Source: Torpedo marmorata (Eukaryota). Taken from it: a stretch of DNA of 64,000 bases. Of this stretch, positions 3,935 through 63,260 are shown one piece after another. Location of the stretch: positions 23,684,001 to 23,748,000 of the forward strand of contig OZ360247.1 in assembly GCA_977017645.1 (NCBI GenBank), read 5' to 3'. Below the pieces are notes generated by a model. It made no database searches. It saw only the letters and a program-made list of their open reading frames with translations, and was not told the origin of the DNA. How positions within the stretch are numbered: the stretch's first letter is position 1; each line of letters begins with the position of its first letter. A program made the translations under genes and the position numbers.

Positions 3935-4100
3935 ATGGTGTAACGCTATTACAGCTCCAGCAACCTGGGTTTGAATCGGTGCTGTCTGTAAGGTGTTTGC
4001 ATGCTTTCTCTGTGTCCACGTCAGTTTCCTCCCACCCTCAAAAAATGTATGGGGTTTGTAGGTCAATTGGCGTATTTTGGCGGTACGGGCTCGTGGCAGG
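3935..4100 (+). mobile_element. Diverged V-SINE
   Basis: gggtttgaatc...gctgtctgtaagg...tttcctcccaccc match the family consensus. Confidence 0.65.
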
Positions 4101-4109
4101 GTAACTCCC

Positions 4110-4770: not shown

Positions 4771-5847
4771 TTTGCAATTTGTAATGTTTCTTTTACCCAA
4801 AGGAATTTTAAAAACGACCTTGAGATAGACCACACAACGAACCTGAACACATGTAGGAAGTGACCCCCTGGCAGGTTCCGATTTCAAGATAAACTAACAA
4901 GACGCAGAGATTGTCCACACATTGTGGTCCGCTCCTACACCTTGCAAACAGGTGTACAGGATTCATCACCTCACAACATGGCAAGAATGCAAGACTGCTT
5001 CCCAGCAGTTCTCGATGGCCATTATGCGTTCCCAATTCAGCTTCGTTCCCAATGTGAATGAAGGAACACTGCTAACAAGAGTGGCTCGGCTATAATGCCC
5101 ATCATGTTTTTATACTGTCATTGCTCAAAATGGCAACTTTAATATTGTTACACATGAATCTCTGCTATGGCAGCATTGTCTAACATAGGGAAAAAGAAAA
5201 CAAGCTGAGAAATTAGATCTACACATAGCAGAAAATAGAAACCAAAGTGTTTTCACTGCTTAGAAATCTTCCCTGCTATTGATATGATTTGACCTTCCAC
5301 TTCCATACATTGTAATAATTAATTCTGAATCTGCTGTTGGCAATAACAACCATATGGGCCTTTAGGGACAGAATTTGAGAAAAACCTGGTTCCTGGTGGA
5401 ATGGAAATCCCCAACTTTAACCCTGAGGCCTTTCCTCATTCTCCAATAGAACTTCTTGTTTTCTTCTTTTATCAATGCTACTGTGACTGTACTCTCTTTA
5501 AATGTTCCTCTCCGGATATTCCTCATCATAAGCATATTGCCCAAACTATCACTCTCCACACCTTTCCTGCTTTGAAATCAGAGTTTGATGTTAATCTTAT
5601 TCAAAACTGGAGTATACCTTACATCACCAAATCTCTCAGCCATTAATCACTACTGTCCAATTTAATTTCAGCAAGGAACAATCTGCTGGAGGAATTCAGT
5701 GGGTCAAGCAGCGTCAGTAGGTGGGGGGAGTGGGGGGAAAAGAATGTTTGACGTTTTGGGTTGGAACCCGATGAAGCGCTCCAACCCAAAATGTCGATCA
5801 TCCTTTTTCTCTTCCGACTTCCTCTAGCATACTGTTCCTTGCTGCAT

Positions 5848-6090
5848 GGCGGCACGGTTAGCGCAATGCTGTTACAGCATCAGCGACCGGGGTTCGAATC
5901 CGGCACTGTCTGTAAGGAGTTTGTACGTTCTCCCCATGTCTGCTTGGGTTTCCTCTGGGTGCTCCGGTTTCCTCCCATCATTCAGAAACGTACCAGGAGT
6001 GTAGGTCAATTGGGTGTAATTGGGCAGGATGGGTTTGTGGGCCAAAGGGCCTGTTACCTTTCTGTATGTCTACGTCTGTATGTCTATGTC
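5848..6090 (+). mobile_element. V-SINE inserted into a Penelope-derived repeat
   Basis: ggcggcacggttagcgca...ggggttcgaatcc...V-domain; Penelope-like sequence at 5670-5835 resumes at ~6090-6140. Confidence 0.8.
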
Positions 6091-6711
6091 AGATTTCCTT
6101 TTGCTCCAGATTCCAGCATTACAATCTCTCGTGTCTCCAGTCTAAGCGACTTGTCCTTTATACCATATTAGTACATATCTTTATTCTATGAAACATTTTA
6201 ATCTGAAGTTTGTTACTCAGTGCCAACTATACTCTCTCTTGAAAGCAGGGGGGGGGGGGGGATTCACCTTTGCTGGGTAACACCTCCAGATGAACTGGTT
6301 TCATCTGTGCGCTCATGTTCGGATGTAAAATTCTACTGAACCTACTTTGTCCCCCCTTCCAGTTTACACAGCAGGAGATTCCTCTGGGAAACTGGTCCAA
6401 ATTGAAGGAAAATACAGCAAAGTGGTAATTTTGAGGAAGAATAACAAACCGAAGTAGAAAGAAAACTAGCGTTAGTTACATTTCAAGACAAGATCTTGCA
6501 CAAGACAAAATTAATGGGGTAATGTTTCACACAATATAAAACTTGGTTGCTTTCTGAGGGGTGGGAGGGGGGGGAAGTAAAAACAATGCACAGGTTTAAT
6601 TCTATTGTTCTTGGCTTTGGTTTCTACACAATTAAAACTGACAGACTCTCTAGCCTTCATGGGCTTCATCAAATTGACATTGTGCCACCAGGCTAATTTA
6701 GGGAGGATGTT

Positions 6712-6968
6712 TAAATGTAGATGTAGACATACAGCACGGTAACAAGGCCATTTCGGCCCACGAGTCCGTGCCGCCAAATTTACACCCAATTAACCTACAC
6801 CCCCGGTACATTTTGAACGGTGGGAGGAAACCGGAGCCCCCGGGAAAACCCACGCAGACACGGGGAGAACATACAAACTCCTTACAGACAGCGCGGGATT
6901 CAAACCCCGGTCCCGATTGCTGGCACTGTAAAGGCGTTACGCTAACCGCTACGCCAACCGTGCCGCCC
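6712..6968 (-). mobile_element. V-SINE
   Basis: Full-length match to the family consensus. Confidence 0.85.
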
Positions 6969-8830
6969 AAGGCACAAAGACACGTTTACCAAGACACAAT
7001 CCCCAAACATTTCATTGGTTGCATCATAATAGGTGTCTGTTATTTTTGCAAATAGAATATGTTCAGATCTCTTGATCTCTGATACAGTGACAGTTTCTGG
7101 CAAAGATATTAAAGGACATGAGACTTACCAGGCATTTTGATCTTTATGAGATCTTTCTCAGAAAGAATCTGAACAACTGCAAAATGTCAATATTTGGGAA
7201 GCACATTGAACAAATGTGGACCAGAGGTTGCTTTCTCCCCTGTTCGGCAGGAAAGCAATCTTAGTTTCAATGCATCTCCAAGATTATTTTGTGGAATTAC
7301 AAATAGTAATTACAAATAGCATGCAGTTTGGTTCTCTTTTGGAAGCATTCAATCTCAATTGGAGATTGATTAACAGCTCTATCAAATACCAGGGAGTGGA
7401 TCTTCTGCCAAACCACAATACCATTATCATCTCTCACAGTGGGTGAGCTTTATTTACTGTCATTTTGCTTACCAGCTGAAGCGTTGCAAGCCTGTGAGTG
7501 CATGCAAAGCAAGAATCAACAAAACCAGTTTCTGATGAAATTAATGATCGAGGAGCTGGGAGAGCAGCTATTGTGAAACTGTTGGTGGCTTGGAAAAACA
7601 AACACCATGAATAAGTTGAGGTCACTTCGTGCTATAATGACCATTTCCCACCTCCCTCCTATCTGACTATAAACTGCCAATGATCCCAGGGACAATAGCA
7701 AACCACTTTCGAGGACTGGACTGTTTGACAAGTTAAATACAGGTGACTGAGACCATTTGCTCAAAGTTATCCAATCCTTCCACAAAAATAAACACAGGTA
7801 TCTTCCCTCCCATTATGTTATCTTATCTAATTTTGAATGAAGTCATCTCCTTTTGCCCTTTAATCAATCTACCTTCCTCAGTACAGCTTAGAGTGAAGAA
7901 AGCTACATAATTCTACTTGGGTTCAACCACCCAAGCACAAAGCTACACTGAAACAGAGACTAAAACTACATTTAAAATGTTGCAGGAAGCCAAAACTTGT
8001 ATCCAGAGCCAAAGTGCAGCCATTTTAGTATTAGAACAATGGGAAATATAGTACCAATGCCTGAGGTATTTTAATTAGACTGTGTCCTCTTGTTCACTTT
8101 GCAGAATCTTATTTCACTACATGTTAAGACAATTGTAATACAGCATCAATAGGAAGTAAAAGGTAACCAATGTTTCAGGCCTGAGCCCTTCGTCAAGGTG
8201 AATGGAAGACAATGGTAACCGATTAAGATGTCTCCCACGCTACAATTCTGATTTCTAAATGTGGATCCTGACAGAACTTTCAAAACAAATGTCAAAGTTT
8301 TATTATAGTTCATCTAATAACTACCAAGCTAATATAGAGGAAGGAGGGAGATCATGTGATGCAGACTGCCAAAAATCGGTCTACCTCATTTCCTCATAAA
8401 AGTCAATACATCTTTGACCACAGTGTCTTCTTCCTTTTTTACCAGGCGTTGTTCTTTCAAAGGGGAAATAAGCCCTTTCAGTAAAGGTCCTTTCTCATGC
8501 AGGTTATCTGCTGAGGATATTCAAGTGTTTAAATTCCCCCACCAGCTCAGATTGTGACCTCTATAGGCAAATAAAATTGAGGATAATTGTTGACCCTGAT
8601 TCAATGGCAGCAATCAAAACCAGTGGAAAAACAAATATTCAAGGCCCATTCCAGTGCTGAGTTCACCATTAGCCATGTATTTTGAGGACGAGGCATTTTT
8701 TTTTGGAATATTTTATTTAATTTTTTTTTATACATGTAATATTACCCCATCCCTTCTCCCCCTCCCCCAACCCACCCCCTTTCAAAAGTAGTGTATTTAT
8801 ATAACAAATAAGGACGAGGCATTAAAGCAG

Positions 8831-9808
8831 GATCAGAAAGCACAAGCTATAATCTTTTGGTTTGTGCGAGTTGCTTCTGCATGACCTTTATTTGCTAGAT
8901 AAGTACATGAGCTGGAATATAAATTATTAAGGTCATTGCATATTAATTCACAGATATACCTGCCAATTGTACTGAGTCAATGTTGTAAACTCAAGGACTT
9001 GCACGTTTCATTACTACAAATCCAAGATAAAAAGCAATTGCAATGATTGTTAATTTTGAAATAAAAATAGAAAATGCTGGAAACAAACAGCAAGTGAGGC
9101 TGCATCAGTGGGAAGAAATCGAGTTAAGTTCTGACAAAGGATCATTGACCTCCGTCATCAATGTTTCCCTATCCATGGATGCTGATTGGCTCGCTGATTG
9201 TTTCCATTTTAGTTTCCCAGTGTCTGCAGTTTTTGATTTTCATTTATGGCACCATTTTGTGTGCTAAATAGTTTAATTTAAAAAAAAAGTAAAAGAATAT
9301 CAGAGACCTATTGTAATGCCCATGAGTTTCCTTCCTCTGTGGACTAAGTGCACAAACACATTTTAGCAGGCAAAACTAACAGTATATCCAACAGTGTGCA
9401 AAGCCTGTACACAACCATCCATGGCCCACTGATTGCAATTGCTAGACATCACAGTGCTTGTGTGGCCTGCTTCACTGTGACTTAAAGGGGTCCTGTGTGA
9501 TTTTGGTCTACATCCAGTGCTGGGAATCCACCTTAGTGAGTGGTTTCATATTTGGCTTACTCAATAATTCATTATGCACAAATGAATTTCCGTACAGCAG
9601 TCCATGATTAAGATAGAATAATGCTGACCATTCTTAATACTGAGTGGACTGCCATGGTAGTTTCCTAGAATATAAAGTTCACAGTTAGTTATATATGTAA
9701 TTCATCTAAAAGGGTTCTATCACACAAGGAATCTATAGCAACTGTGTATTGGTTGTGTGGACTACATCCCTCTGATGTTTAACCTTCACTATTACTTCAA
9801 CAATGAAA
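8831..9808 (+). repeat. Left arm of a ~1-kb inverted duplication
   Basis: Reverse complement of 11652-12534 plus 13236-13344. The ORF track shows the same peptide MIVNFEIKIENAGNKQQVRL at 9043(+) and 12454(-). Confidence 0.95.
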
Positions 9809-11651: not shown

Positions 11652-13344
11652 GTTTCATTGTTGAAGTAATGGAGAAGGTTAAACATCAGAAAGATGTAGT
11701 CCACACAACCAATACACAGTCGCCACAAGTTGCTATAGATCCCTTGTGTGATAGAACCTTTTATATGAATTACATATATAAGTAACTGTGAACTTTATAT
11801 TCTAGGAAAGTACCATGGCAGTCCACTCAGTATTAAGAATGGTCAGCATTATTCTATCTTAATCATGGGCTGCTGTACGGAAATTCATTTGTGCATAATA
11901 TGCAAACCACAATGTGTTATTGAGTAAGCCAAATATGAAACCACTCACTAAGGTGGATTCCCAGCACTGGATGTAGACCAAAATCACACAGGACCCCTTT
12001 AAGTCACAGTGAAGCAGGCCACACAAGCACTGTGACGTCTAGCAATTGCAATCAGTGGGCCATGGATGGTTGTGTACAGGCTTTGCACACTGTTGGATAT
12101 ACTGTAAGTTTTGCCTGCTAAAATGTGTTTGTGCACTTAGTCCACAGAGGAAGAAAACTCATGGGCATTACAATAGGTCTCTGATATTCTTTTACTTTTT
12201 TTTTTAAATTAAACTATTTAGCACACAAAGTGGTGCCATAAATGAAAATCAAATACTGCACACTGGGAAAGTAAAATGAAAATAAAACGTTGGAAACAAT
12301 CAGCGAGCCAGTCATCATCCATGGATAGGGAAACATTGATGACGGAGGTCAATGATCCTTTGTCAGAACTTAACTCAATTTCTTTCCACTGATGCAGCCT
12401 CACTTGCTGTTTGTTTCCAGCATTTTCTATTTTTATTTCAAAATTAACAATCATTGCAATTGCTTTTTATTTTGGATTTGTAGTAATGAAACGTGCAAGT
12501 CCTTAAGTTTGCAACACTGGCTCATTACAATTGCTTATTGATATCTTTCCTGTAGTTAGGTGACCAAAACTGCACAAAATACTCCAAATTTGGCCTCACC
12601 AATGTCTAATACTACTTTACCATAACATCCCAACTCCTGTACTCAATACTTTGAATTATAAAGTTGAGTATAGGAGTTGGGATGTTATGGTAAAGTTGTA
12701 TAAGACATTGTTAAGGCCAAATTTGGAGTATTTTGTGCAGTTTTGGTCACCTAACTACAGGAAAGATATCAATAAATTTGAAAGAGTGCAGAGAAGATTT
12801 ACTAGGATGTTGTCTGGACTTCAGGAACTGAGTTACAGGGAAAGGTTAAACAGATTAGGACTTTATTCCCTGGAGCGCAGAAGAATGAGGGGAGATTTGA
12901 TAGAGGTATTTAAAATTATGAGGGGGATAGACAGAGTAAATGTAGGTAGGCTTTTCCCACAGAAGGTAGGTGAGATACAAACCAGAGGTCATGGGTTAAG
13001 GGTGAAAGGGGAAAAGTTTAGGGGAACATAAAGGGGAACTTCTTCACACAGAGAGTGGTGGGAGTGTGGAACGAGCTGCCAGCTGAAGTGGTAAATGCGG
13101 GCTCAATTTTAACATTTAAGAATTTGGACAGGAACATGGATGGGAGGGGTATGGAGGGCTATGGACAAGGCAGAAAAGTAGTTCAGCACAGACTAGAAGG
13201 GCCGGAGGGCCTGTTTCTGTGCTGTAATGTTCTATGCAATGACCTTAATAATTTATAGTCCAGCTCACTTACTTATCCAGAAAATAAAGGTCATGCAGAA
13301 GCAACTCACACAAACCAAAAGATTATAGCTTGTGATTTCTGAAC
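11652..13344 (-). repeat. Right arm of the inverted duplication, interrupted by a CR1 insertion (12535-13235)
   Basis: For example gaccttaataatttatagtccagctc (13241) pairs with gagctggaatataaattattaaggtc (~8909), and ccactcactaaggtggattcccagcactgg (11941) pairs with ~9514-9543. Confidence 0.92.
12535..13235 (+). mobile_element. 5'-truncated CR1 LINE with a fold-back (inverted duplicate) 5' end
   Basis: YRSWDVMVKLYKTLLRPNLEYFVQFWSP...LERRRMRGDLIEVFKI; 12535-12650 is the reverse complement of ~12662-12775. Confidence 0.9.
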
Positions 13345-14057: not shown

Positions 14058-15309
14058 ATAATAGTCATCACTTCACTGTAGGAATCACTATTGGCAACTT
14101 GTACACAAGGTGACACAGATAACAAAACGAGAAAGATCAGATCATCAATTGTAGAGATTAATATTGGCCAGGACACCTCCTGCACTTTATAGATTATTGG
14201 TAACAGAATTTATGCTAGTTTTACTCAGGGCATTAGAAACAACTCCAAAGTAATACTTTTGATTAGCCGAATACTCAGTTTAGAGTACTGCATGATCTTC
14301 CTTTTGCAGTAAAAAGAAACAAGTATTTTAAATAACAATTCAGGTAATGTGCAATGCAAAAAGCTGCATGTCTGCATTTGAACACTGGAAAATTAGATGG
14401 AGACTTTGGAAAATGCTGCAGCCTTTTTTAAATGGTTAGAGCAGCAACATTTTTTTTTCCCTTGAGACGAGGTGCATAAAAAAAACTCGACATTTGATCT
14501 GAAGACATGAAGCTGGAGAGACGGTGATCAGTCAGTTGAGTGAAATGTGTTTCCTGACTTGTGCAGGTGTTAGCTTTCACCCTCCAAACAAAAAAAGGCA
14601 ATGTTCACTCTGCAGCAGCAATCATTTCCTTTATGGCTATCAGCCTGCAGTGTATCAGGTATCACTGTGAATGTAGCAGCTTGTACTCTGACACTTCGCT
14701 AACAGGCCATTACTGTGCTGAAAGGCCGCCTCAAGAAAGAGCAGCTACTCGTTGCCAAGGGGGTTTCTACAATGTGGGATAATGGGTGGACTTGGGTTTG
14801 CTACATGCGGTGATCACCTTGCAGACTTCAAGATGGAAGCATACAGATGCTCTTTGAACTCTTTAAGGTCTTGAGTTCTTAAAGGAAAGCACAGTCCCAA
14901 TCTCATCCATTGTGAATGCGAGATCGTTTTTATTCTATTTTTGGGTTTGTAAAATCTGGTGATGAAGCAAGTGAGCCGACACTTGCAGTGCAGGTGAATA
15001 ACAAATTCCGTGCAAACTTCATGTACAGTCACCAGCTCACACTCCAGCAGTATGCTGCATTACTCTAAGAAACAAATCAAAACAGTCTTAGACAGTAATG
15101 AACGGAGAGAACTTCTTCATGGTAGGTGGGCTCAGGCCCGAAATGTCAGTAATATATCTTTACCTTCTATGGACGCTGCGAGACCCGTTGAATTCCTCCA
15201 GCATTTCTCTGTGTGTTTTAGACAGTAATGTCCGGTTTACCATTTGACCCTGAGCTGAGTTCTAGCTCTTCAGGATCCAAGCCTTAGCGCCCCCTGCCCA
15301 CCACCACCC

Positions 15310-20019: not shown

Positions 20020-22115
20020 TTAGAAACATAGAAAATAGGTGCAGGAGTAGGCCATTCGGCCCATTCAGTCTGATCATGGCTGATCATCCAACTCAATACC
20101 CTGTACCTGCTTTCTCACCAAACCCCCTGATCCCCTTAGCCACAAGGACCACATCTAACTCCCTCTTAAATATAGCCAATGAACTGGCCTCTACTCTTTC
20201 CTGTGGCAGAGAATTCCACAGATTCTCCACTCTGTGTGAAGAAACTTTTCCTCATCTCAGTCCTAAAAGATTTCCCCCTTATCCTTAAACTGTGACCCCT
20301 GGTTCTAGACTTTCCCAACATCGGGAACAATCTTCCTGCATCTAGCTTATCTAATCCCTTAAGAATTTTATATGTTTCAATAAGATCCCCCCTCAATCTT
20401 CGAAATCCCAGTGAGTATAAGCCTAGTCGGCCAAGTCTTTCTTCATATGAAAGTCCTGCCATCCCAGGAATCAATCTGGTGAATCTTCTCTGCACACCCT
20501 CTATGGCAAGAATGTCTTTCCTCAGATTAGGAGACCAAAACTGTACACAATACTCCAAGTGTGGTCTCACCAAGGCCCTGTACAACTGCAGCAGAACCTC
20601 CCTGCTCCTGTACTCGAATCCCCTTGCTATAAATGCCAACATACCATTCGCCTTTTTCACTGCCTGCTGTACCTGCATGCCCACTTTCAAAGACTGGTGT
20701 ACAATGACACCCAGGTCTCGTTGCACCTCTCCTTTTCCTAATCGGCCACCATTCACATAATAATCTGCTTTCCTGTTCTTGCCACCAAAGTGGATAACCT
20801 CACATTTATCCACATTATACTGCATCTGCCATGCATTTGCCCACTCACCCAACCTATCTAAGTCCCCCTGCATCTGCTTAGCATCTTCCTCACAGCTAAT
20901 ACTGCTGCCCAGCTTCGTGTCATCCTCAAACTTGGAGATGTCGCTTTCAATCCCCTCGTCTAAATCATTAATATATATTGTAAATAACTGGGGTCCCAGC
21001 ACCAAGCCTTGTGGTACCCCGCTAGTAACTGCCCGCCATTCTGACAAGGACCCGTTTATTCCCACTCTCTGCCTCCTGTCTGCCAACCAATTTTCTATCC
21101 ACATCAATACCATACCCCCAATACCGTGTGCTTTAAGTTTGCACACTAATCTCTTGTGTGGGACCTTATCAAAAGCCTTTTGAAAATCCAAATATACCAC
21201 ATCCACTGGTTCTCCCTTATCTACTCTACTAGTTACATCCTCGAAAAATTCTATAAGATTCGTCAGACATGGTTTTCCTTTCATAAATCCATGCTGACTT
21301 TGTCCGATGATTTCACCGCTTTCCTAATGTGCTGCTATCACATCTTTAATAACTGACTCTAGCATTTTCCCTACTACCAACGTCAGGCTAACTGGTCTAT
21401 AATTTCCCGTTTTCTCTCTCCCTCCCTTTTTGAAAAGTGGGGTTACATTAGCTACCCTCCAATCCTCAGGAACTACTCCAGAATCTAAAGAGTTTTGAAA
21501 AATTATCACTAATGCATCCACTATTTCTGGGGCTACTTCCTTAAGCACTCTGGGATGCAGACTATCTGGCCCTGGGGATTTATCTGACTTTAATCCCTTC
21601 AATTTACCTAACACAACTTCCCAACAAACATGTATTTCCTTCAGTTCCTCCATCTTATTAGACTTTCGGTCCCCTACTATTTCCAGAATATTATTTATGT
21701 CCTCCTTAGTGAAGACAGAACCAAAGTAGTTATTCAATTGGTCTGCCATGTCCTTGTTCCCCATGATCAATTCACCTGTTTCTGTCTGTAAGGGACCTAC
21801 ATTTGTTTTAACTAATCTTTTTCTCTTCACATATCTGTAAAAGCTTTTACAGTCAGTTTTTATGTTCCCTGCCAGCTTTCTCTCATAATCTATTTTCCCT
21901 TTCCTAATTAAGCCCTTTGTCCTCCTCTGCTGGACTCTGAATTTCTCCCAGTCCTCAGGAATGGTGTTTTTTCTGGCTAATTTATATGTTACTTCTTTGG
22001 ATTTGATACTATCCCTGATTTCCCTTGTTAGCCACAGGTGCACTATTTTCCCTGGTTTATTATTTTGCCAAACTGGGGTGAACAGTTGTAGTTCATCCAT
22101 GCGATCTTTAAATTC
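20020..22115 (-). mobile_element. CR1 LINE, ~2.1 kb, near-intact RT region (5'-truncated, frameshifted)
   Basis: ORFs 21324-22133 and 20166-21284: KSPGPD, NYRPVSL, VYLDFQKAFDKVPH, GVPQG, KFEDD (FADD variant), RPHLEYCVQFWSP. Confidence 0.95.
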
Positions 22116-22519
22116 TTTAAGGTTTATCTTCACTGTCAGGCCAACAATCCAATGGATTGCATGAATGCATGATTTTCATTTCATTTATTTCAAATCCTTT
22201 ATAAATATAGATTTCATAAAGGATACAAAATTGAGCTTGTTAGATTACTGCTTAAGTGGTGAAGGCAAAAATCCAATCCACATATGCTGTGGATAAACTG
22301 AACTGTCAAGTGTATTTGCCTTTGAGAAGATGCACATTCTCCCGATTAGTGACGTCTCCTGGGTTTCTGTGGGAAGCTAATTCACATAGTCTGCTGGGTC
22401 AAACTGCAGAGAATTCATTCCAGGCTATTTGCTTACAAATCTGAATTATTGGTTCAAAGGAGCCACTACTGGATAAATGGAAACATCTGAGGGAAATAAT
22501 TTTAATTTAAATTTATTTT

Positions 22520-24638: not shown

Positions 24639-24851
24639 TATTCCAGCACCAGGATGATTTCCGAAGTCGTCTCATACACTTCATGCAAGTCCACCACATG
24701 GGAGTTGCTTTTCGCTATCTCAAGGATTGCAATCTCGTTGATAATGTCCATGCGGCAATCTTGACCTTTCCTTCGTTTTCTTAAGAACTTTGCTGCGTAT
24801 TCCTTTCCGGAGGCATTTTCCATGCACTTCTTGACAACTGCAAACTTTCCC
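24639..24851 (-). CDS. stk17a-like: Coding exon 2 of the DRAK/STK17A-like kinase (N-lobe)
   Basis: Acceptor tttctttctgctcacag|G and donor TA|gtgagt; 213 nt. Encodes (R)[70 protein letters not shown](Y), containing the AAK catalytic Lys and the DAPK/DRAK basic loop KRRKGQDCR. Confidence 0.95.
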
Positions 24852-29599: not shown

Positions 29600-29851
29600 G
29601 TCTTGTGCAATATAGCAGGACATCATTCAAAATGGTACATTAAGAATGAACCCTTCTCAGGAAGCTTGAAGAAAGTGGTGAGATATGTTCACACATTTAA
29701 TAATGGATTATTACAGGCAGGAATCGGTTAAAAATAATTCAATTGTAATTTCCAAAAGCCAAAAATCTATTTGCAACTGTGATCGTTCATTGTAATGTGA
29801 GCAGTTTGGCTGTGCTGACATCTTTAGTGGTTGTTTCTCATTACTGTAGGT

Positions 29852-30226
29852 CAGTGGTTTTCAAACTGCCCCCCTAATCTCACATTCCACCTTAAGCAAT
29901 CCCTATGCCATAAGTGCTCTGTGATTGGTAAGGGATTGCTTAAGGTGGTATGTGAGTGGGAAGGGAAGGTTGAGAACCACTGCTCTAGACCCAATTGTTT
30001 CTGAAATATTTTGCTTGAGAAAAATTGTCATTGGCCCATTTCCTTTGGAGTTATGAAACGGTGCACATAACGAGTCAATTAGGTATGATTAAAACAGTGG
30101 TTTTCAAACTTTTTCTTTCCCCTCACATACCACCTTAAGCAATCCCTTACTAATCACAGAGCACTTATGGCATAGGGATTGCTTAAGGTGGAATGTGAGT
30201 TTAGGGGGGCAGTTTGAAAATCACTG
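29852..30226. mobile_element. Composite hAT (Charlie-like) MITE: two inverted ~130-bp monomers around a ~110-bp core
   Basis: TIR cagtggttttcaaac ... gtttgaaaatcactg; perfect 8-bp TSD ctgtaggt; internal TIRs near 29968-29982 and 30095. Confidence 0.9.
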
Positions 30227-32574: not shown

Positions 32575-32720
32575 AAGAAGTAAAACACGAAAATCTGTAG
32601 ACACTGTGGTTGAAGTAAAAAACACAAATGCTGGAGAAACTCAGCAGGTCAAACAGTGTCTTTGATGTAGCAAAGGTAGAAATACATAACCGACGTTTCG
32701 GGCTTGAGCCCTTCATCAAA
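32575..32720 (-). repeat. Penelope-type terminal repeat with a hammerhead-like motif
   Basis: Reverse complement TTTGATGAAGGGCTCAAGCCCGAAACGTCGGTTATG..., near-identical to 60837-60945. Confidence 0.8.
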
Positions 32721-32980
32721 TGGTTGAGAACCACTGCTCTAGATCCAATTGTTACTGAAATATTTTGCTTGAGAAAAATTGTCATTGACCCATTTCCTTT
32801 GGAGTTATGAAACTGTGCACATAACGAGTCAATTAGGTACGATTAAAACAGTGGTTTTCAAACTTTTTCTTTCCACTCACATACCACCTTAAGTAATCCC
32901 TTACTAATCACAGAGCACCTATGGCATAGGGATTAGTTAAGGTGGTATGTGAGTGGAAAGAAAAAGTTTGAAAACCACTG
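32721..32980. mobile_element. Truncated copy of the composite hAT MITE
   Basis: ggttgagaaccactgctctaga, the core, and the second monomer ending gtttgaaaaccactg. Confidence 0.85.
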
Positions 32981-32984
32981 ATCT

Positions 32985-33335
32985 ATACAAATAAATAAAT
33001 ATATATTGTTTCATGAATATGAGTCTTGGATGGTTAGTGTGAGCAGTTCCTTTGGTCGTTCAGCATTCTCACTGCCCATGTGAAGAAGCTGTTCCTCAGC
33101 CTGGTGGTGCTGGCTCTGATACTCCTGTATCTCTTCCCCGATGGGAGCAGCTGAAAGATGCTGTGTGCAGGGCGGAAGGGGTCCTCAATGATTTTGCACA
33201 TCCTCTTCAGACAACGTTCCCGGTAGATCATGTCGATGGGGGGGGGGGGAGGAGGGGGGGGGAGGGAGACTCCTGTGATCCTCTCTGCCACTCTTAAGGT
33301 CCTGTGGATCGACCTCCGATCCATTTCTCTGCTGC
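32985..33335 (-). mobile_element. Rex1/Babar-type LINE fragment
   Basis: ERCLKRMCKIIEDPFRPAHSIFQLLPSGKRYRSI...RLRNSFF. Confidence 0.75.
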
Positions 33336-40609: not shown

Positions 40610-40835
40610 AGTAACAACACAGAAAATCTAGAGAAACTCAGCAGGTCTCGCAGCATCCATAGGAGGTAAAGATAAATAACCGACGTTTCGGGCCAAAACC
40701 ACACCTTGAAGAAGAGCTCAGGCCCGAAATGTCGGTAATATGTCTTTACCTCTATGGACACTGCGAGACCTGCTGGGTTCCTCCATCATTTCTGTGTTTT
40801 TACTACAATCACGGCATCTGCAGACTTTCGTGTTT
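40610..40835. repeat. Inverted pair of Penelope-type terminal repeats
   Basis: actcagcaggtctcgcagcatccataggaggtaaaga...ccgacgtttcgggcc pairs with ggcccgaaatgtcgg...tctttacctctatggacactgcgagacctgctgggt. Confidence 0.8.
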
Positions 40836-43610: not shown

Positions 43611-44189
43611 CAATGATATCCAATGCAATGATTTGCTTGTAATGAATTTATACATTCCCATGGTTGTTTCAATTTCTGCTTTACCCATTGGAAGTGTAGA
43701 GGCAGATGCAGTTGGAATCATCAATGGTCAATTAACTCAAACGGGAGTAAGAGTCGGGCCAGGCAGACCCATGTAACAAATTTCCAATTAAGATTTCCCT
43801 GGCCCACTTTCTTGCATTCACCTTTCTTTTATCTCGGGGTTTGATGAAGGCTGCAAATATGAGATTTACTGGAAAAGGGAAATTAAATTTAAAAATAAAA
43901 TCAGCTCTCCAGACCCCCAATGTGAGATCTATGAAATCATGAGTCCATCACACCACCAAAGCAGCAGAGATTTGTACTGTGAAGTAGCAAGTACCAGCAG
44001 CAGTGGGTACAACATCCAGACATAGAAAGCTCATTCGCAGGACACATCGTTTGCATCACCATCATATTTTGGAAAGCTCATGTAACTGGTCTTTGCACAC
44101 TTGGACAGCAGGGCTCAGCAGCACATGTACACAGTTACTCAGCCAATTCTCATTTCATAGCTCTACTTGTTTAGACAAGAGTCTGGTTA

Positions 44190-45687
44190 AAGCTGGGCAC
44201 CATGTGCAGCGGGGATGCCCACGGGCTGTCTGAGCGGCGGACGATCCGCATTTCCTCCATCTTGCGGAACTCCTCTTTGGCCAGGTGTAGCTTGTCGGGT
44301 GGGAGCCTGCGAGCTCGGGCGTGTAGAGGCGGACCTGTTGTAGAGATGTGGTGCTGCACGCCATGTTTAAGGCCGGTGGTGGAGAACTGTGGGGTAACGA
44401 TGGAGGGGAAATCTGCCAAAACCCTGGTGAATTCGTTTCCGGAGAGCTTCACGGAGTGCAAATGGAGGGCTGGAAGGTTGGCCTCACCGAGCTGGAGCGT
44501 TTGGAACGTCTCCACGTGGACCAACCTTCGGCCTTTCAGGTCGACCAGGAAACCTTTGGCCTGTAAAAAATCTGCTCCGAGTAATGGCTGTGAAACCGCC
44601 GCCACCGTAAAAGTCCAAGTGAAACGAGCAGACCCGAAATCTAGCGGAATGGTCCGTTTGCCAAAAGTGCGGATGGTTGTGCCGTTTGCGGCGGTCAGCT
44701 CCGGGCCTGGAGTTGCATTGCGTGTGTCTATGTTCGAGGACGGGAGGACGTTGATTACAGCTCCGGTATCTACTAGGAAACGCACATGGTGGACGGCAGC
44801 GGCGTGCGCCCTGGCCCCATCTTTGGTGGTAGAAACACCATAGGTCTGAACCATCATCTTTGTCCCCCGTGGCCTTTGGAGGTTTCGGGGTCGGAGTTTT
44901 GGGGGGTGCGATTGCAGCCAGGCCCAGGGAGGTGGCTCTCCATTGCCTACTCTGCCAAAGGACATCTGCTTTGGCTGTGACCTTGCGAGGGTCACTGAAA
45001 TCCTCACTTGCGAGCAGGAGGCGAATGTCCTCGGGCATCTGCTGGAGGAACAGCTGTTCGAATAGAAAACATGGCTTATGGCCGTCCATGTGCGCCAGCA
45101 TGTCGTTCATTAGCTCGGACGGTGTGCGATCGCCCGGGCCATCCATCTGGAGGAGCCGCGCGGCCCATTCACGGCGGAAGAGGCCGAAAGTTTGGAGCAG
45201 GAGCGCCTTGATCTTAATGTACCTTTCCTCTGTAGGGGGTTGATGGAGGAAGTCAACGATCCGGCCTGCTGTCTCCTGGTCGAGCGCACTGACCACGTAG
45301 CAGTACCTCGTGGCATCGGCTGTGATGTCCCTGATGTTGAACTGGGCCTCGGCCTGCTCAAACCACATGTGGGGCTGAGTGGACCAGAAAGTCGGATGCT
45401 TCAGTGAGACTGCGCTGGAACTCATGGTCGATGCTGCTTCTTTAACTCCAGGTGCCGTCTGGAGCGTCGGGGTCACCAATGTAGTTGCGCTACGGCGCAC
45501 TATCAATTAAAGACACAGAGACTGTGGAGTTCAATCATGGAGTCTTTACTGGATTCAAAACACTGAACTATTCCCGGGGCGTAAGTGACGTCAGCACACT
45601 TTCCAGAAGTCCCGCCCCGAGCGCATAATTCCGGACGCCCCGTTGTGTCCGATGGCGGTTCGAGACCCGCGAGTGCACGCCACTACA
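44190..45687 (-). mobile_element. Ty3/Gypsy LTR retrotransposon, 5' part (LTR-PBS-gag-protease-start of RT), 3'-truncated
   Basis: LTR 45480-45687 (TGTAGT...ACTACA); PBS TGGTGACCCCGACG; gag from ATG 45425 (PTFW...WFEQAEAQF...WCFYHQRWG...RCRPPC); protease FLVDTGA...LLGADFL in another frame; RT start SPWASPLHMVP. Confidence 0.92.
45465..45478 (-). promoter_or_regulatory. Primer-binding site, complementary to the tRNA-Trp 3' end
   Basis: TGGTGACCCCGACG lies one base after the LTR's CA end; vertebrate tRNA-Trp ends ...CGTCGGGGTCACCA. Confidence 0.8.
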
Positions 45688-49339: not shown

Positions 49340-49620
49340 GGAGTAAAACATGAAAGTCTGCAGACACCGTGGCTGAAGTAAAAACACAATGCTGGAGAAA
49401 CTCAGCAGGTCAAACAGTGTACTTTATAGAGCAAAGGTAAAGATACATAACCGACGTTTTGGGCTTTAGCCTTTCATCAAGGTATGAACAAACCTTGATA
49501 CCTTTTTGTTCATACCTTGATAAAGGGCTCAAGCCCAAAACGTTTGTGATGTACCTTTATCTTTGCTATATAAATACACTGTTTGACCTGCTGGGTTTCT
49601 CTGGCTTTGTGTTTTTACTA
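49340..49620. repeat. Inverted pair (long hairpin) of Penelope-type terminal repeats
   Basis: ~49378-49492 pairs with ~49505-49619; each arm carries a variant of the CATACCTTGATGA..GGGCTCAAGCCC..AAACGT motif. Confidence 0.85.
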
Positions 49621-51491
49621 AAAAAAAGAAAGACATGGCTGTCAAATTATGGGAAGTTAATCACAAAAAAACACCAGAAAATTTAATTTCCTGCAATTGA
49701 GAACTAATATAAACACATATTAGTGTACTCAATCATCAGCTACTGTAGGGATGATAATATTACAGATTATTACTCAACTTTCTAAGATACTTAGGTTTAG
49801 TCTCCATGTAGACCGAATACAAACTGCAATTCTACTTTAATTAGATTCACATCCTCAGCTGCACAGACCTGCATTGAACTCAGTGAGGATGATACAGAAG
49901 ATTTTCTAGCACAATGCCTGGGTTGGATCAAGAAATCTGCAACTGATCTCAAGCTGACAGTTGGGTGCATTGCCACACTTTCTAGGACTGGTCACAACCT
50001 CCAACACACACAACAGGACTACAGATAACACAGACTGCAGAGATGAGGCAGAATCCTGGAGCTACATAATGCAAGACTTCCCAAAGACTTGACACCGGGA
50101 AGAGGTGGTGCTCCAAAAACAACTGGATTTCCTTCTGAAGTAGCAACATTCTTTTGTAGATTACTAGACTTCTCTGAATTTGTAAATGGTACTATTCTTC
50201 TGTGGTGAGTTCTGAGATTTAGTTCAGAAGCACACTGCTTAGAATGCAGATTTAATGAGTTTATTGTCATGTACAATGTACAGTTCAGAAGCGCACATTT
50301 CCATTGACAGATTAGAACACCAAGAAAGAAAGTTACACTGAGATACACTGATAGATTTTTATTATCAGATGAATTCAACACAAGCACATCTCTCCAATTA
50401 CCGAGTACTTTGCGTACAGGAGAACTATACCCTCAGTCAAATTTGTTGCCAAATCAAACTGATCATAGCCCTTGAAGAAGGGCTCAGGCTGAAAACGTCG
50501 GTAATATATCTTTGCCTCCTATGGACACTGCGAGACCGGCTGAGTTCCTCCAGCAGTTCTGTGTGTTTTTACTTTGATCATAAATGGAATCAACCACCAC
50601 TGAATGACTACAAATAAAAATGTCACTTATTTTTCTTGCTTTAAAGTTTGCATGGGAAAGCAAATTTAGGTCAGTATTTTAATTCAAAGCTAGATTGTAT
50701 TAAACAATGCAACATCCTGCAAAAGAAATAATTGGCATCCTTGAAAATTTCCAAAAATATTGTTATAGTAGAAGGCATGAACCATCAAAAAGCACCACAC
50801 TGGACAACCCCAGCTCTGATGAACAAGAATCTTTTTGTCAGATAAACCTACATTGTTGAAAGAACTTGCATGATTGTGGGGAGGTACGGTGGATTGCTTG
50901 TACATTGAGCCAGTGCAAACATGATGGGCCAAATGGGCAACTGTTGCAGATTTTAAAAAGATCTTCATTCCTGATCTTGGCAAAAGAATCACAGCAAGTT
51001 ACAAAGGTACAGAGAAATAGGGAGGAGGGACTGGAGTGACAGGATATCTTGCAGGGGGTAGCATGCACCAGATGACTTACTATAAACAAAAGAGGGAATA
51101 AGCAATTGTTAGTACATTATTCAATGCACGGCTACCTGATAGCAGTAATCTCCACTGCAATGATTTTTGCTCTCAAATAATATTAATATTTATATACATT
51201 TAATATTTATATACATTTAATATTAATAGCATATTTTCATTAACAGTCTTATATATGAAGTATTTTCCCCCATATTACACACTAAAACACATTCCCAGAA
51301 AACCTCGAGTCTTTGAGGAACACATATAGAGTGGGTTCAGTTGAGGTCACAGCAGATGCAATTGAGGCATTCATACAGGTACATATCCAAGTTTCATAAT
51401 TGGCTAGCAAACTAATCCAGGATTAATTTGGTGTAATTTGTACAAGTCAATCATATCCTGATGAGAATTACCAGATACAACTTTCAACATA

Positions 51492-52145: not shown

Positions 52146-52296
52146 TACATACTTTCATTGCTGGTGTGTGGCTACAACAGGAAAGCTCCCCCCAATTTCA
52201 CAAGCATAGTATTGGAGATTTCTTGTGAAAAAAGCAAGAGGGGAAATAACTGAATGGATTGGGTGTACACACTCATCAACTTTTGTTTGTTGACAG

Positions 52297-52673
52297 CAGT
52301 AGTTTTCAAACTTTTTCTTTCCACTCACATACCACTTTAAGTAATCCCTATGCCATAGGTGCTCTGTGATTAGTAAGGGATTACTTAAGGTGGTATGTGA
52401 GTGGAGGGAAAAAGGTTGAGAACCACTTGCTCTAGACCCAATTGTTACTGAAATATTTTGCTTGAGAAAAATTGTCATTCGCCCATTTCCTTTGGAGTTA
52501 TGAAACCGTGCACATAACAAGTCAATTAGGTACGATTAAAACAGTGCTTTTCAAACCTTTTCCTTCCACTCACATACCACCTTAAATAATCCTTTACTAA
52601 TCACAGAGCACCTATGGCATAGGGATTACTTAAAGTGGTATGTGAGTGGAAAGAAAAAGTTTGAAAACCACTG
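52297..52673. mobile_element. Full-length copy of the composite hAT MITE
   Basis: cagtagttttcaaac...monomer...ctctagaccc core...monomer...gtttgaaaaccactg; no clear TSD. Confidence 0.85.
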
Positions 52674-53829: not shown

Positions 53830-54495
53830 GGATTCTCCCAGCGCCGAGTTACACAGCGATCGATAAATCACAGGGCAAAGGGGGAATTGAATGAAAAGCT
53901 TCCGACTGCAGTGTCTGACACTCACCTTCCCAGCTCCTTCCCCAACAGAGTATAATTGCTGTTGAAAGAGTCGGTCCGTATTCGGGATAAAATCTTGGCC
54001 ACCAGTCCTTTACGATTCATCATGACGGCAAAGAAGGCGAACTCAAAAGTCCAAAGAAAGTTGATAGTTGAAGGCAGTGCAAATTAAACCCAAGGCAGCC
54101 GGGGCACTGTTGAACGTGTCGGCGGCAGCAGAGCGTCCAGCAGTCGGTAACCCTGTGCAGCGAGCACTGCTGACAAGCCCTGCTGTTCCCCCACCCCCGG
54201 GGCTGAGTTGGTGTCCTTGACAGGGGCAACCCGACTGCGGAACCTCGGCGCGGTGAAAGGTTTGCACAGCAATGCTCCACACACCAGCCCGGCGTGATCA
54301 CTCTGACAACAGTGCAATTGTAGCGGGACATCAAAACACTCCGAGGAGCCGAGGTCCAAGCAACATCACGCCGCAGAGAACCAATCACAAGTCGGACGGA
54401 AGCAGCGGTGCTGGTGAGCAGAGGCGACACCGCTGTTCCCCAGGCTGAAGCCCAAACTGCGGCAGAGCAGATGCGCGCAGGTTTAGCTGGGGAAT
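53830..54495 (-). promoter_or_regulatory. CpG island / probable promoter and 5'UTR of the kinase gene
   Basis: GC- and CpG-rich, apparently non-repetitive segment around exon 1 in an AT-rich background; CCAAT motif (ccaatca) near 54381. TSS cannot be determined from sequence. Confidence 0.7.
53926..54023 (-). CDS. stk17a-like: Coding exon 1 of a DRAK/STK17A-like death-associated Ser/Thr kinase
   Basis: Reverse complement reads ATG ATG AAT CGT ... = MMNRKGLVAKILSRIRTDSFNSNYTLLGKELG + AG, then donor GTGAGT. It joins in phase 2 to exon 2 to rebuild the Gly-rich loop ELGRGKFAVV. Not in the ORF track (98 nt). STK17A versus STK17A-like paralogue cannot be resolved by eye. Confidence 0.9.
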
Positions 54496-55457: not shown

Positions 55458-58152
55458 TGTGGCGCTCTTAATCAAGGATGAGTTCAAGGCAATAGCGAGA
55501 GATTATATAAAATCTAAGCAACATAATGTTGAGTCCATCTGAGTAGAGATTAAGAATAACAAAGGGAAAAAATCACTGGTGGGAGTTGTCTATCGCCCAC
55601 CAAATAACAATAGTACAGTGGCACAGGCAATTAACAGAGAGATAAGTGAGGCATGTAAGAATGGAACGGCAGTGGTCGTGGGGGACTTTAACTACCACAT
55701 AGATTGGGAAAATCAAGTTGGTCGCGGGAGTCTGGAAGAAGACTTCATAGAATGCATCTGTGATAGCTTTCTCGAGCAGCACGTTAAGGAACCAACAATA
55801 GTGAATGCTATTTTGGATCTAGTATTGTGCAATGAGATAGGTAGAGTAAATGATGTAATAGTTAGGGACCCTCTTGGAAATAGCGATCATAGTATGATTG
55901 AATTTCTCATACTGATGAAGGGGGAAATAGTTAGATCTAAAACTAACGTATTATGCTTAAACAGGGGAGACTATCACAGGATGAGGGAGGAATTGGTCAG
56001 CGTGGACTGGGAGCACAGGCTAGTTGGTAGAACAGTTGAGGAACAGTGGAAGATTTTCAAGGAGATTTTTCACAATGCTCAACAAAAATATATTCCAGTT
56101 AAGAATAAGGGCAGCAAGAGAGGGAAGAGTCAGCCGTGGTTAACTAAGGAAATAAAGGAGAGTATAAAATTAAAAGCTCAGGTGTACAAAGTTGCAAAGA
56201 GTAGTGGGAAACTGGAAGATTGGGAAAACTTTAAAAGACAACAAGGGACAACAAAGTGGGTAATAAGAAAGGGGAGAAAGGATTATGAAGGTAAATTGGC
56301 ACAAAATATAAAAACAGATAGCAAAATTTTTTATAAATATATAAAACGGAACAGGGTGGCTAGAGCTAACATAGGACCCTTGGAAGATGAGAAGGGGAAA
56401 TTGATATTGAATAATGAGGAAATGCCGAGGCCTTGAACAAATATTTTGTGTCTGTCTTCACGGTGGAAGACACGTCCAGCATGCCAAAGAGTGGAGATAG
56501 GGATGCGAATGTTGGTGAAGGCCTTGATAAAATAGTTGTTACAAAGGAGGTAGTGATGAACAAACTAATGGGACTAAAGCCGGACAAATCCCCTGGTCCT
56601 GATGAAATGCGTCCCAGGGTTCTGAGGGAAATGTCAGAAGTTATAGTCAATGCATTGGTGGACATATACCAAAATTCTCTGGATTCTGGGCAGGTCCCGG
56701 CAGATTGGAAGACAGCAAATGTCATGCCACTTTCTAAGAAGTGATGTAGGCAGAAGACTGGGAACTATCAGCCAATTAGCTTAACGTCTGTAGTTGGGAA
56801 AATGCTTGAAGCTGTCATTAAGGATGAAATAGTGAGACATTTAGAACGAAGGGGTTCAATCAGGCAGGCGCAGCATGGGTTTAGGAAGGGCAGATCTTGT
56901 TTGACAAACTTGTTAGAGTTCTTTGAGGACATAATAGGTGCAGTAGATAGAGGGGAACAGGTTGATGGTGTATATTTGGATTTCCAGAAAGCGTTTGATA
57001 AGGTGCCGCACAAGAGACTTATCAGTAAGTTACAGGTGAATGGAGTCCAGGGAAGTATATTGGCATGGATTGAGGATTGGTTGTCTGACAGGAGGCAGAG
57101 AGTCGGGATAAATGGGTGTTTTTCTGATTGGCAGACAGTGGTAAGTGGGGTGCCGCAGGGGTCGGTGCTGGGCCCACAACTGTTCATCATTTACATTGAT
57201 GATTTGGAGGAGGGGACAAAATGTGGTGTTGCCAAGTTTGCGGATGATACTAAATTGAGTGAAAGAGCAAATTGTACTGAGGATGTGGAGAGGCTGCAGA
57301 GGGATATAGTTAAGTTAGGTGAGTGGGCAAAGGTCTGGCAGATGGAGTATAATGTTAGTAAGTGCAAGAAAAATAAAAGAGCAGAATATTATTTAAATGG
57401 TGAAAAACTGCAGCATGCTGTTGCGCAGAAGGACTTGGGAGTGCTTGTGCACGAATCGCAAAAAGTTGGGTTGAAGGTGCAGCAGATTATTAAGAAAGCA
57501 AATGGATTGTTGGCCTTCATCACTAGAGGAATTGAATTCAGGAGCAAGGAGGTAATGTTGCAACTGTACAAGGTACTGGTGAGACCGCACCTGGAGTACT
57601 GTGTGCAGTTCTGGTCTCCATATTTGAGGAAGGATATACTGGCCTTGGAGGCAGTCCAGAGGAGGTTTACTAGGTTGATCCCTGAGATGAAGGGATTGAC
57701 ATGATGAAAGATTAAATCGTCTGGGATTACACTCACTCGAGTTCAGAAGAATGAGAGGAGATCTTATAGAAACATATAGAATTATGAAGGGGATGGATAG
57801 GATAGAGGTAGGAAGGTTTTTTTCACTGGCGGGTGAGACCAAAACTAGGGGACACAGCCTCAAGATTCGGGGGAGTAGATTTAGGACAGAGATGAGGAAA
57901 AACAGTTTTTCCCAAAGAGTGGTGAATTTGTGGAATTCTCTACCCAGGGAAACAGTTGAGGCTGCTTCATTGAATATATTTAAGGTTCAGTTGGATAGAT
58001 TTTTACATAAAAAAGGAATTAGGGGATATGGGGAAAGGGCAGGTAGGTGGAGTTAGGTCATTGATCAGATCAGCCATGATCTTATTGAATGGCGGAGCAG
58101 GCTCGATGGGCCAGTTGGCCTACTCCTGTTCCTAATTTCTTATGTTCTTATG
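55458..58152 (+). mobile_element. CR1 LINE, 2.7 kb: partial AP-endonuclease, RT and 3'UTR (frameshifted)
   Basis: GVVYRPP...VVGDFN...ILDLVL...LGNSDH (APE domain); KSPGPD; YLDFQKAFDKVPH, GVPQGSVLGP, KFADD; tail ttcttatgttcttatg. Confidence 0.95.
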
Positions 58153-60156: not shown

Positions 60157-60945
60157 GGGACCTTCCGCAGGGACCGCTCCCTCCGCGATTCCCTCGTGCA
60201 CTCATCCCTCCCCACCCATCGCACCCCCGGCACCTTCCCCTGTGCCCACAGAAGGTGCAACACCTGCACCCACACCTCCCCCCTTACCACAGTCCGGGGC
60301 CCCAAACAGGCCTTTCAAGTGAAGCAACACTTCAGTTGTACATCCAGAGAACTTATTTACTACATCCGGTGCTCCCTTTGTGGCATTCTCTACATCGGAG
60401 AGACCGGTCATAGATTGGGAGATCGCTTTGCTGAGCACCTCCTCTCCATCCACAACAACAGTGACCTCCCAGTAGCCAACCATTTCAATTCCGAGTCACA
60501 CTCCCACACTCACATGTCTGTCCATGGCCTTATGTACTATCCCACCCAGACTACCCGCAAATTGGAGGAACAACATCTTATTTTCCGTCTGGGCACTCTC
60601 CAGCCAGGTGGCATTAATATTGACTTTTCTGCTTTCCACTAAACCTGCTCGCCTTTTCCTTCCACTCCCCCCTCACCTGTTCTTCCTGTTTTTTTCCACC
60701 CACCCAGCCATCCCTCCTCCCCCTCTTTGCTGCTGTCCCCTCCCTCCTTTCTCCACCTATCATCTCCTGCCTTTGCCACACCCACCCTTCCCCCCCTCAC
60801 TCTTTTATTCGGACGCCTGCCAGCATTTTCTCATACTTTGATGAAGGGCTCAAGCCCGAAACGTCGGTTATGTATTTCTACCTTTGCTACATAAAAGACA
60901 CTGTTTGACCTGCTGAGTTTCTCCAGCATTTGTGTTTTTTTACTT
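60157..60945 (+). mobile_element. Penelope-like retroelement 3' fragment: GIY-YIG endonuclease plus terminal repeat
   Basis: PGTFPCAHRRCNTC...LIYYIRCSLCGILYIGETGHRLGDRFAEH...RKLEEQHLIFRLGTLQPGGINIDF (Cys motif and GIY-YIG), then a pyrimidine-rich UTR and the hammerhead-like motif. Confidence 0.92.
60832..60872 (+). ncRNA. Putative minimal type I hammerhead ribozyme motif
   Basis: CATACT-TTGATGA-A-GGGC TCAA GCCC-GAAAC-GTC-GGTTATG: core boxes (C/U)UGANGA and GAAA, a 4-bp stem II, a GUC site and stem I CATA.CT/GG.TATG. Activity is untested. Confidence 0.6.
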
Positions 60946-62226: not shown

Positions 62227-63260
62227 AGTGAACAAGAAAATCTGCAGATGCCTGGGTCTAGTGTAGTGCACAAAAGTGCTGGAAAAACACCGCAGGTCAC
62301 ACAGCATCCATAGGAAGTAAAAGGCAGTCGACGTTTCTGGCCTGAGCCCTTCATCGGGATTGTTGAACATCAGGCAGATGCCTGAATAAATAGGAGGGGG
62401 AAGTTGGGGGAAGGGGAAGGGGGAGGAGCACAGGTTAACAGGGGAAGAGGTAATAGATTTCAGATTCTGATTTCAGATTTCTTGTCAGAGTACATACATG
62501 ACATCACATACAACCCTAAGATTCTTTTTTCCTGCGGGCAAGGCAGAATTACCAATCATTGGCAGTGCAAAAAAAAACGGACTCAACGTACACATGTAAA
62601 CAAATAAAGAAATGTAAACAAACTGACTATGCAATATTCGTTCAGGTGTGGTGTGGGCGATCATGTCTCTCCATCCATCATGGTCTCTGGCCCTCCGAAT
62701 TGCAGTTGTTGCAATATAGAGAGAGAGAAAAAAATTAATGAAGTGCAAAAGTAAGAGTCTTTAATTAAGTCCCTGATTGAGTTTGTTGTTGAGGAGTATG
62801 ATGGTGAAGGGGTAGTAGCTGTTCCTGAACCTGGTGGTGCGAGTCTTGTGGCACCTATACCTCTTTCCTGACGGTAGCTGTGAAAACAGAGTGTGTGCTG
62901 GGTGGTGTGGATCCTTGATGCTTGCTGCTGCTCTCTGACGGCAGAGTTCCTTGCAGATGTTCTCGATGGTGGGGAGGGTTTTGCCCGTGATGTCCTGGGC
63001 CGTAGGTGGATGCTGGTGGGAAGGTAGAAGCTGGGAAGTGATGAGGGAGAGGGCAGAGTGCAAAGAAGAATAGCTCTCCGATAGGAAAAGGAAGGTAAGG
63101 AGGTGGGGAGCTGTAGGAAGGGAGACAGAGGTGTGAGGGAAAGAGACCCCTCCCCCCCATCTTTTTATGAAGCTCAGGCCCAAAACGTCGATTGCCTTTT
63201 ACTTCCTGTGGATGCCGCGTAGCCTGCTGAGTTTCTCCAACACTTTTGCATACTGCTTAG
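62227..63260. mobile_element. Inverted Penelope-type repeat pair interrupted by a minus-strand Rex1/Babar fragment (~62456-63002)
   Basis: Minus copy with gtcgacgtttctggcctgagcccttcatcggg (62327); plus copy with ttatgaagctcaggcccaaaacgtcga (~63165); the Rex piece encodes KDPHHPAHTLFSQLPSGKRYR. Confidence 0.7.

Follow-up and report, generated by a model that had tools for sequence, protein, structure and literature searches.

A minimal hammerhead motif with a U3-G8 core in the terminal repeat of a highly amplified Penelope-like element of Torpedo marmorata

The window analysed here is a stretch of 64,000 nucleotides from contig OZ360247.1 of Torpedo marmorata. It contains two exons of an STK17A (DRAK1)-like gene on the minus strand and, beyond the first coding exon, the end of a Penelope-like element (PLE) on the plus strand, in which a hammerhead-type motif is located. 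Exon 2 of the kinase gave STK17A (7que_A) as its best phmmer match (E=2e-29), followed by STK17B; exon 3 is outside the window, about 3.5 kb ahead of its first base. The main features are as follows.

53926-54023, minus strand: first coding exon of the STK17A (DRAK1)-like gene; its frame ends in ELGR, followed by a GT donor
24639-24851, minus strand: exon 2 of the STK17A-like gene
60160-60944, plus strand: 5′-truncated PLE insertion, with the end of the RT-EN ORF, the 3′ UTR, a pLTR with the hammerhead motif and a short-type 3′ end
60160-60642, plus strand: C-terminal GIY-YIG endonuclease part, with a CX4CXXC linker and CCHH-type residues; stop codon at 60640-60642
60832-60872, plus strand: minimal type I hammerhead motif by its sequence, intact apart from U3
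60911-60928, plus strand: short block, conserved and predicted to form a hairpin, immediately ahead of the first fixed 3′ end

The insertion was 93-95% identical to most of the long genomic copies among those listed (L081-L100). Its GIY-YIG frame matched the Pfam GIY-YIG domain at E=0.005, below the gathering score, and gave 150 scored genomic matches at 92-95% identity, itself excluded. The long genomic copies carried a single ORF of 773-848 aa with RT motifs and, at the C-terminal end, GIY-YIG, their Pfam matches (that of the RT too) being below the gathering score, and the hammerhead motif was located 3′ of this ORF; in the window it starts 190 nt beyond the stop of the GIY-YIG frame. The linker reads CAHRRCNTC, with a C..C that precedes the YIG and two His later, and thus presents both the CX2-5CXXC pattern and the CCHH residues. 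A CX2-5CXXC linker marks Neptune and Nematis PLEs (PMC8557442). Classified on these sequence characters, the element is a Neptune/Nematis-type EN+ PLE. One copy, L085, was full-length (pLTR-ORF-pLTR), with a motif in each pLTR, the two on the same strand and 4,075 nt apart, and an ATG 152 nt past the first predicted cut. The hallmarks of PLEs found here were pLTRs, an optional 30-40-nt tail and inverted 5′-truncated copies. L085 (1-9001) is embedded in a tandem repeat of about 77 bp, and the 5′ part of its ORF, which is interrupted by a stop, has a 57-bp internal repeat.

The 41 bases at 60832-60872 on the plus strand (CATACTTTGATGAAGGGCTCAAGCCCGAAACGTCGGTTATG) were assigned to the following parts.

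60832-60837, plus strand: 5′ strand of stem I
60838-60844, plus strand: first core box, U3-U4-G5-A6-U7-G8-A9
60845, plus strand: extra A after A9
60846-60857, plus strand: stem II, 4 bp, GGGC/GCCC
60858-60861, plus strand: GAAA; the palindrome ACGT follows at 60861-60864
60865, plus strand: C of the GUC triplet, after which the cut is predicted
60866-60872, plus strand: 3′ strand of stem I, which is bulged

The anatomy that had been proposed for this motif held, since both boxes, the extra A, stem II, ACGT and GUC were all found and position 3 is U. Only the consensus CATACC given for the 5′ strand of stem I did not apply here: it reads CATACT, and pair 2.1-1.1 is consequently U-G. Helix III is absent, and the motif parses as a type I hammerhead without it. 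The published core elements YUGANGA, GAAA and NUH, from an alignment that includes U3 with G8, are present at 60838-60865. Compared with a canonical type I hammerhead active as a monomer, the motif has neither the Watson-Crick 3-8 pair nor helix III, nor a match in Rfam: a scan of the window at E≤1 gave zero hammerhead families and only miRNA-type matches on inverted repeats. Nearest-neighbour folding of the monomer favoured an inactive rod (-11.8 versus -7.7 kcal/mol). As far as its bases tell, the repeated motif is of a known kind, a small hammerhead-type motif in a PLE terminal repeat.

Eleven further sites had been listed in the window, and all 12 exist and are mutually homologous (blastn/nhmmer). 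A motif search at 8-9 mismatches gave 10-11 matches in the window and 0-0.1 in block shuffles.

5767-5796, plus strand: old decayed copy with A at G12 and a broken palindrome, with an inverted partner on the minus strand; antisense to STK17A intron 2
8163-8203, minus strand: decayed copy with a broken palindrome (ACAT) and triplet AUU; sense in STK17A intron 2
15128-15154, plus strand: 5′-truncated copy without the first core box
32685-32725, minus strand: young copy of subfamily A1, sense-oriented in intron 1, with an intact core and a truncated stem I (pairs 2 and 3 lost)
40674-40740: head-to-head inverted pair; its minus-strand copy (40674-40693) is without the first box
40700-40740, plus strand: plus copy of that pair, with a stem II mismatch and a broken palindrome
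49446-49551: head-to-head inverted pair (A2); its minus-strand copy (49446-49486) carries G12A and G10.1A
49511-49551, plus strand: plus copy of that pair, with G8A and G12A
50466-50506, plus strand: subfamily B copy with G12A
62324-62363, minus strand: older copy of subfamily C; it has C3, but also C4 and a mismatch at G10.1-A11.1, and lies upstream of the first STK17A coding exon
63162-63198, plus strand: older subfamily C copy with the first box destroyed

By homology, all 12 are remnants of the terminal-repeat motif of a Neptune/Nematis-type PLE. The original prediction that the copies have both core boxes applied to some sites and failed at 15128 and 40680, where the CUGANGA-type box is missing, and at 63165, where it is destroyed; among the 12, only the motif at 60832 is intact apart from U3.

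In the 6.22-Gb genome, the exact motif patterns matched 59,081 and 69,206 times, with 0 matches in reversed controls, and the first 100 exact motifs listed all carried U3-U4. Versions of the pattern with C3 matched 342 times, or 2,224 times with a looser pattern. A young lineage with the canonical C3 was looked for among these and rejected: each of the 12 loci fetched was either an old copy (about 80-84% alike) or a repeat of a single duplicated segment, and had no EN frame within 1.5 kb upstream. A profile search of 119 regularly spaced 10-kb stretches found 157 remnants, of which 114 include the motif; reversed sequence gave 0. Scaled to the whole genome, these counts correspond to about 820,000 remnants, about 600,000 of which include the motif; because the same sample overestimates the exact count 1.4-fold (19 matches), several hundred thousand is the safe reading. 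Close neighbours within 6 kb, among the first 100 intact motifs listed on contig C1, comprised 12 pairs in divergent, 1 in convergent and 1 in same-strand orientation. The repeat was also present in contigs assembled from RNA runs of six organisms (A-F; 12 runs, 6 studies), contigs that carry no RNA ends or strand. Some motif-bearing segments have been multiplied locally in larger duplications (G000:C30:29833765-29908453 and C2:8127001-8499500; L263, L264 and L271).

For clustering by the 3′ flank alone we used 243 near-full copies; 167 had been met by chance and 76 came from loci picked with the EN protein. Centres chosen by pattern were excluded, and a few overlapping or duplicated loci remain in the set. 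Flank divergence ordered the subfamilies by age: A1 2.7%, A2 7.6%, B 10%, C 11% and the D groups 15-20%. In the three youngest (A1, A2 and B), C3 was found in 0/170 copies and U3-G8 in 155/170, with no compensation of U3 at G8, so that the Watson-Crick core pair was lost and the core pair of the young families is likely weakened. Among the older copies, C3 was present in at least 36 of 73. A9a, G10.1-C11.1 and the palindrome ACGT prevailed in A1, A2, B, C and D5, and the older groups were eroded at CpG sites. In one old group, D8 (e.g. L142:5561, L170:7985), U3 occurred with A8, a known compensated core, in 5/13 rows, two of them identical, which suggests an old U3-A8 subfamily. Separately, the mutual similarity within the old groups D4, D5 and D8 mostly ends 25-55 nt before the cut site, reflecting either short solo elements that start at the hammerhead edge or alignment loss in a pyrimidine-rich tract.

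Both sides of four pairs changed between subfamilies: 2.2-1.2 (UA/CG), 2.3-1.3 (GC/AU), 2.4-1.4 (AU/UA, in B) and 10.4-11.4 (UA/CG). In 16 hand-picked copies, 84.8% of the cells paired, as against 17-58% with slid partners. The stem covariation that had been proposed as a check on the motif is thus found, in few independent events; the compensatory changes amount to about four events along a single lineage, part of which could be explained by insertion of a U together with a shift of the stem I register. Across the A1, A2 and B consensuses, the core and stem II varied at 0/21 columns, in comparison with 103/204 on the upstream side (p=1e-6) and 23/96 on the downstream side (p=0.006), or 126/300 for the combined flanks. 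Specifically, G5, A6, G8, A9, G12, A13, A14, A15.1, U16.1, the palindrome and H17 were fixed, and the loop and N7, the free position that differs by family, varied. A stretch around the 3′ ends was nearly as invariant as the hammerhead (35/41 versus 36/41), and conservation of the motif could therefore also reflect a promoter or protein-binding role.

Individual copies behaved differently from these master sequences. A raw difference between core and flank (A1 1.3% versus 2.7%, p=0.008; B p=0.04) disappeared once bases were matched and shared variants left out, and greater conservation of the core across copies was rejected; private core changes numbered 13, 12 and 13, with 14.3, 14.2 and 14.6 expected from base-matched flanks. 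Individual copies decay neutrally and the master subfamily sequences are constrained. The core-versus-flank conservation by which the motif was to stand or fall was therefore seen among subfamily masters and was missing across individual copies, and as a refutation test it was ill-posed. As a result of this neutral decay, 70/100 A1 copies were intact apart from U3, and only 4/34 in A2 and 2/36 in B; in the chance sample the figure was 23/107, with 0 carrying C3.

The ends of the young copies were not distributed as a footprint of cutting. Of 42 3′ ends, 12 fell at +70 to +79 and 26 at +109 to +118 from the predicted cut. These positions represent the PLE tail, by which two internal RT start sites are marked in the anole element, PAc (PMC11167929). 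No young 5′ end lay within 5 nt of the predicted cut (0/79; 0/42 and 0/37), and 3/161 3′ ends did so, two of which are one duplicated locus, leaving 2 independent ends within 2 nt. Enrichment of copy ends at the cleavage site was thus rejected, and because copies do not end at the cut, their templates carried an uncut or re-ligated site. The A1 5′ ends gathered modestly further upstream, at the 5′ edge of stem I, at -29 to -34 (8/66 by extension, or 6 after dropping two that continue upstream; 4, or 4/6, in the next 31 nt). The block at 60911-60928, conserved across subfamilies, is a candidate reverse-transcription start signal; its predicted hairpin was not significant (z=-1.1).

We consider it probable that the motif is a minimal hammerhead in the pLTR of a hyper-amplified Neptune/Nematis-type PLE, that it works only in the RNA of the element and that the copies in the window are inert leftovers. 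Two same-strand units in the element's own RNA would pair as a dimer, and this dimer would be cut weakly, with the help of the element protein. The U3-G8 core would confer low activity. The C3U change strongly slows minimal hammerheads, and a literature search found no kinetic data for a U3-G8 core. Insertion would use uncut or re-ligated RNA, so that the hammerhead would not be required for each insertion. As the copy ends show, reverse transcription starts at two fixed sites, some 75 nt and 114 nt on the 3′ side of the GUC, and reads through it. Minimal PLE hammerheads have been described with no monomer activity and low dimer activity (PMC4209133), the anole hammerhead needs the element protein in order to cleave and its core mutants still insert (PMC11167929), and natural core variants of reduced activity are on record (PMC3088659). 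Residual cleavage in the element RNA is about as likely as its absence.

Attribution of the motif to Penelope-derived minimal hammerheads of the kind reported by Cervera and De la Peña agreed with the pLTR position, the type I motif and the subfamily covariation. The likeness to the min-HHRs that Cervera 2014 describes in metazoan PLEs, including fish Xena, Poseidon and Neptune (PMC4209133), extends to the pLTR position, the extra nucleotide after A9, G10.1-C11.1, the palindromic 15.2-16.2, the lack of helix III, mostly solitary copies and inverted neighbours. Here, however, stem II is short (4 bp), U3-G8 is the state of the dominant lineages, and the genome has about 69,000 exact copies besides several hundred thousand decayed ones, whereas 2,000-9,000 per genome are given there. 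U3 opposite G8 is already present in their Fig. S3, in the core UUGAAGAA of the Saccoglossus kowalevskii(1) PLE, and the class is known. The supplement file of Cervera 2014 that was searched named no shark, skate or chimaera, and our literature search returned no paper on hammerheads in cartilaginous-fish PLEs; retrozymes are reported in one chondrichthyan genome (Li et al. 2026, bioRxiv 10.64898/2026.07.22.740005). The Anolis carolinensis Poseidon element (PAc; Frangieh et al. 2024, PMC11167929) resembles the present one in its pLTR hammerhead just before the ORF region, in two internal RT start sites that give a 30-40-nt tail and in the lack of ends at the cut site. It differs in having a C3-G8 core and an ORF that begins within the motif; in the present element the ATG lies past the cut, and Neptune/Nematis is indicated by the CX4CXXC linker. 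The element lends itself as a natural system in which to ask why hammerheads are retained by PLEs, with a dated subfamily series in which C3-G8 gave way to U3-G8 with the other catalytic positions fixed, followed by tens of thousands of near-perfect copies.

A lesser possibility is that the motif of the young families is catalytically dead and kept as a structural or DNA element, be it an RT stop or jump boundary, a protein-binding site, or an internal promoter with an RNA 5′ end at about -33. U3 without A8 in 170/170 young copies, joined in the youngest by the U-G at 2.1-1.1, speaks for this reading, and the absence of copy ends from the cut site, the A1 5′ ends upstream of it and the enriched tandems of the hammerhead unit all fit as well. 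Penelope has an internal promoter (PMC2377424), and Naiads thrive without canonical hammerheads (PMC8557442). On the other hand, the fixation of every other catalytic position, the palindrome and H17 while N7 and the loop vary is a catalytic pattern, the U3/G8 core recurs in the Saccoglossus PLE, and an old group carries U3-A8.

The tandems came from a genome-wide pattern search, which found head-to-tail 40-46-nt repeats spanning the motif at 90 junctions (about 82 loci) and shorter-period repeats of the unit at 41 junctions (about 28 loci). At the 40-46-nt period, control frames shifted by +20 nt gave 20 junctions (11 loci), by +45 nt 0 and by -25 nt 2. Overall, tandem units of 37-46 nt were present at about 110 loci, including L250-L262 and L275-L279 and one array of 13 units. 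Because the junctions mostly differ, these loci are independent births and no amplified family. As judged by eye, the inner unit nearly always restarts at -31 to -34, and the stop of the unit before it varies between -1 and +13. The outermost unit started at -29 to -38 in 12 of the 17 tandem loci inspected. One explanation, which we regard as unlikely, is that in this genome's most successful PLE lineage the hammerhead, which with its U3-G8 core would cleave rarely, has turned from a cutter into a template boundary, at which the telomerase-related RT, made to stop at about -33 by the fold or by an RNA 5′ end at the motif edge, would jump back to about +7 to +13 and re-copy the 40-46-nt unit, so that retrozyme-like arrays would be born at insertion. 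A literature search by title or abstract found no link between PLE hammerheads and template jumps, and since some of the junctions are explained by short stretches of direct microhomology at a distance of 45-46 nt, the junction pattern is a lead and not a mechanism. A double hammerhead can be drawn for natural tandems, but by prediction an inactive rod has much the greater stability (-31 versus -14 kcal/mol). The two consecutive units typical of retrozymes are found at these roughly 110 loci and nowhere in the window. Non-LTR retrozymes (Cervera and de la Peña 2020, PMC7229834; Li et al. 2026) likewise consist of hammerhead units derived from PLE pLTRs, whereas the window copies are solitary truncated PLE ends. 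The tandem signature may show how non-LTR retrozymes originate from PLE ends.

Quite unlikely, in our estimate, is the cut-and-circularise model of Cervera, in which both pLTR motifs would cut the precursor, the unit would be ligated into a circle and the RT would copy it for more than one round. L085 shows the more-than-unit layout that it predicts, and a re-ligated junction would read through the GUC as all copies do; against it, merely 2 independent 3′ ends of 161 lay within 2 nt of the cut, the tandem junctions are spread from -1 to +13 and not placed at the cut, and for the anole element uncut RNA is described as the main template in vitro, with no reads ending at the site (PMC11167929).

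Most of the copies had been placed in the kinase introns, which is correct for 9/12; those at 60832, 62327 and 63165 lie outside them, barring an unseen non-coding exon, because the first coding exon of STK17A is at 54023-53926. We give almost no credence to the original prediction that sense-strand intronic copies pair and cleave the kinase pre-mRNA: the four minus-strand copies invoked (8172, 32685, 40680 and 49447) are sense-oriented in STK17A introns, and same-strand intact pairs 0.4-4.3 kb apart do exist elsewhere in the genome (3 in 119 sampled 10-kb stretches), but each of the four is broken by a missing box, G12A, a broken palindrome or a truncated stem I, they are 8-24 kb apart, the copies show no selection and close neighbours are mostly inverted. 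No copy transcribed in sense with STK17A being intact, cutting of its RNA is unlikely and an effect of the motif on the gene has no support; the copy at 60832 lies outside the coding gene, on the strand opposite to STK17A. The amniote intronic hammerheads of RECK and C10orf118 (PMC3088659) share with the present copies a location inside host introns, but they are described as single-copy, conserved and active alone, whereas these are neutrally decaying repeat remnants: the single copy under purifying selection that marks a domesticated intronic hammerhead is replaced here by repeats whose sense intronic members are broken.

Other repeats were recognised in the window. A Gypsy-type LTR retrotransposon remnant with DUF7041 and aspartyl protease frames lies at 44171-45506 on the minus strand, in STK17A intron 1. 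Four long inverted repeats (12588-12722, 29838-29991, 32858-33002 and 52286-52440), with miRNA-family Rfam matches below the gathering score, are probably inverted repeat insertions. LINE RT and endonuclease fragments (Pfam RVT_1, Exo_endo_phos_2) are present at 20166-22175 and 55543-58056.
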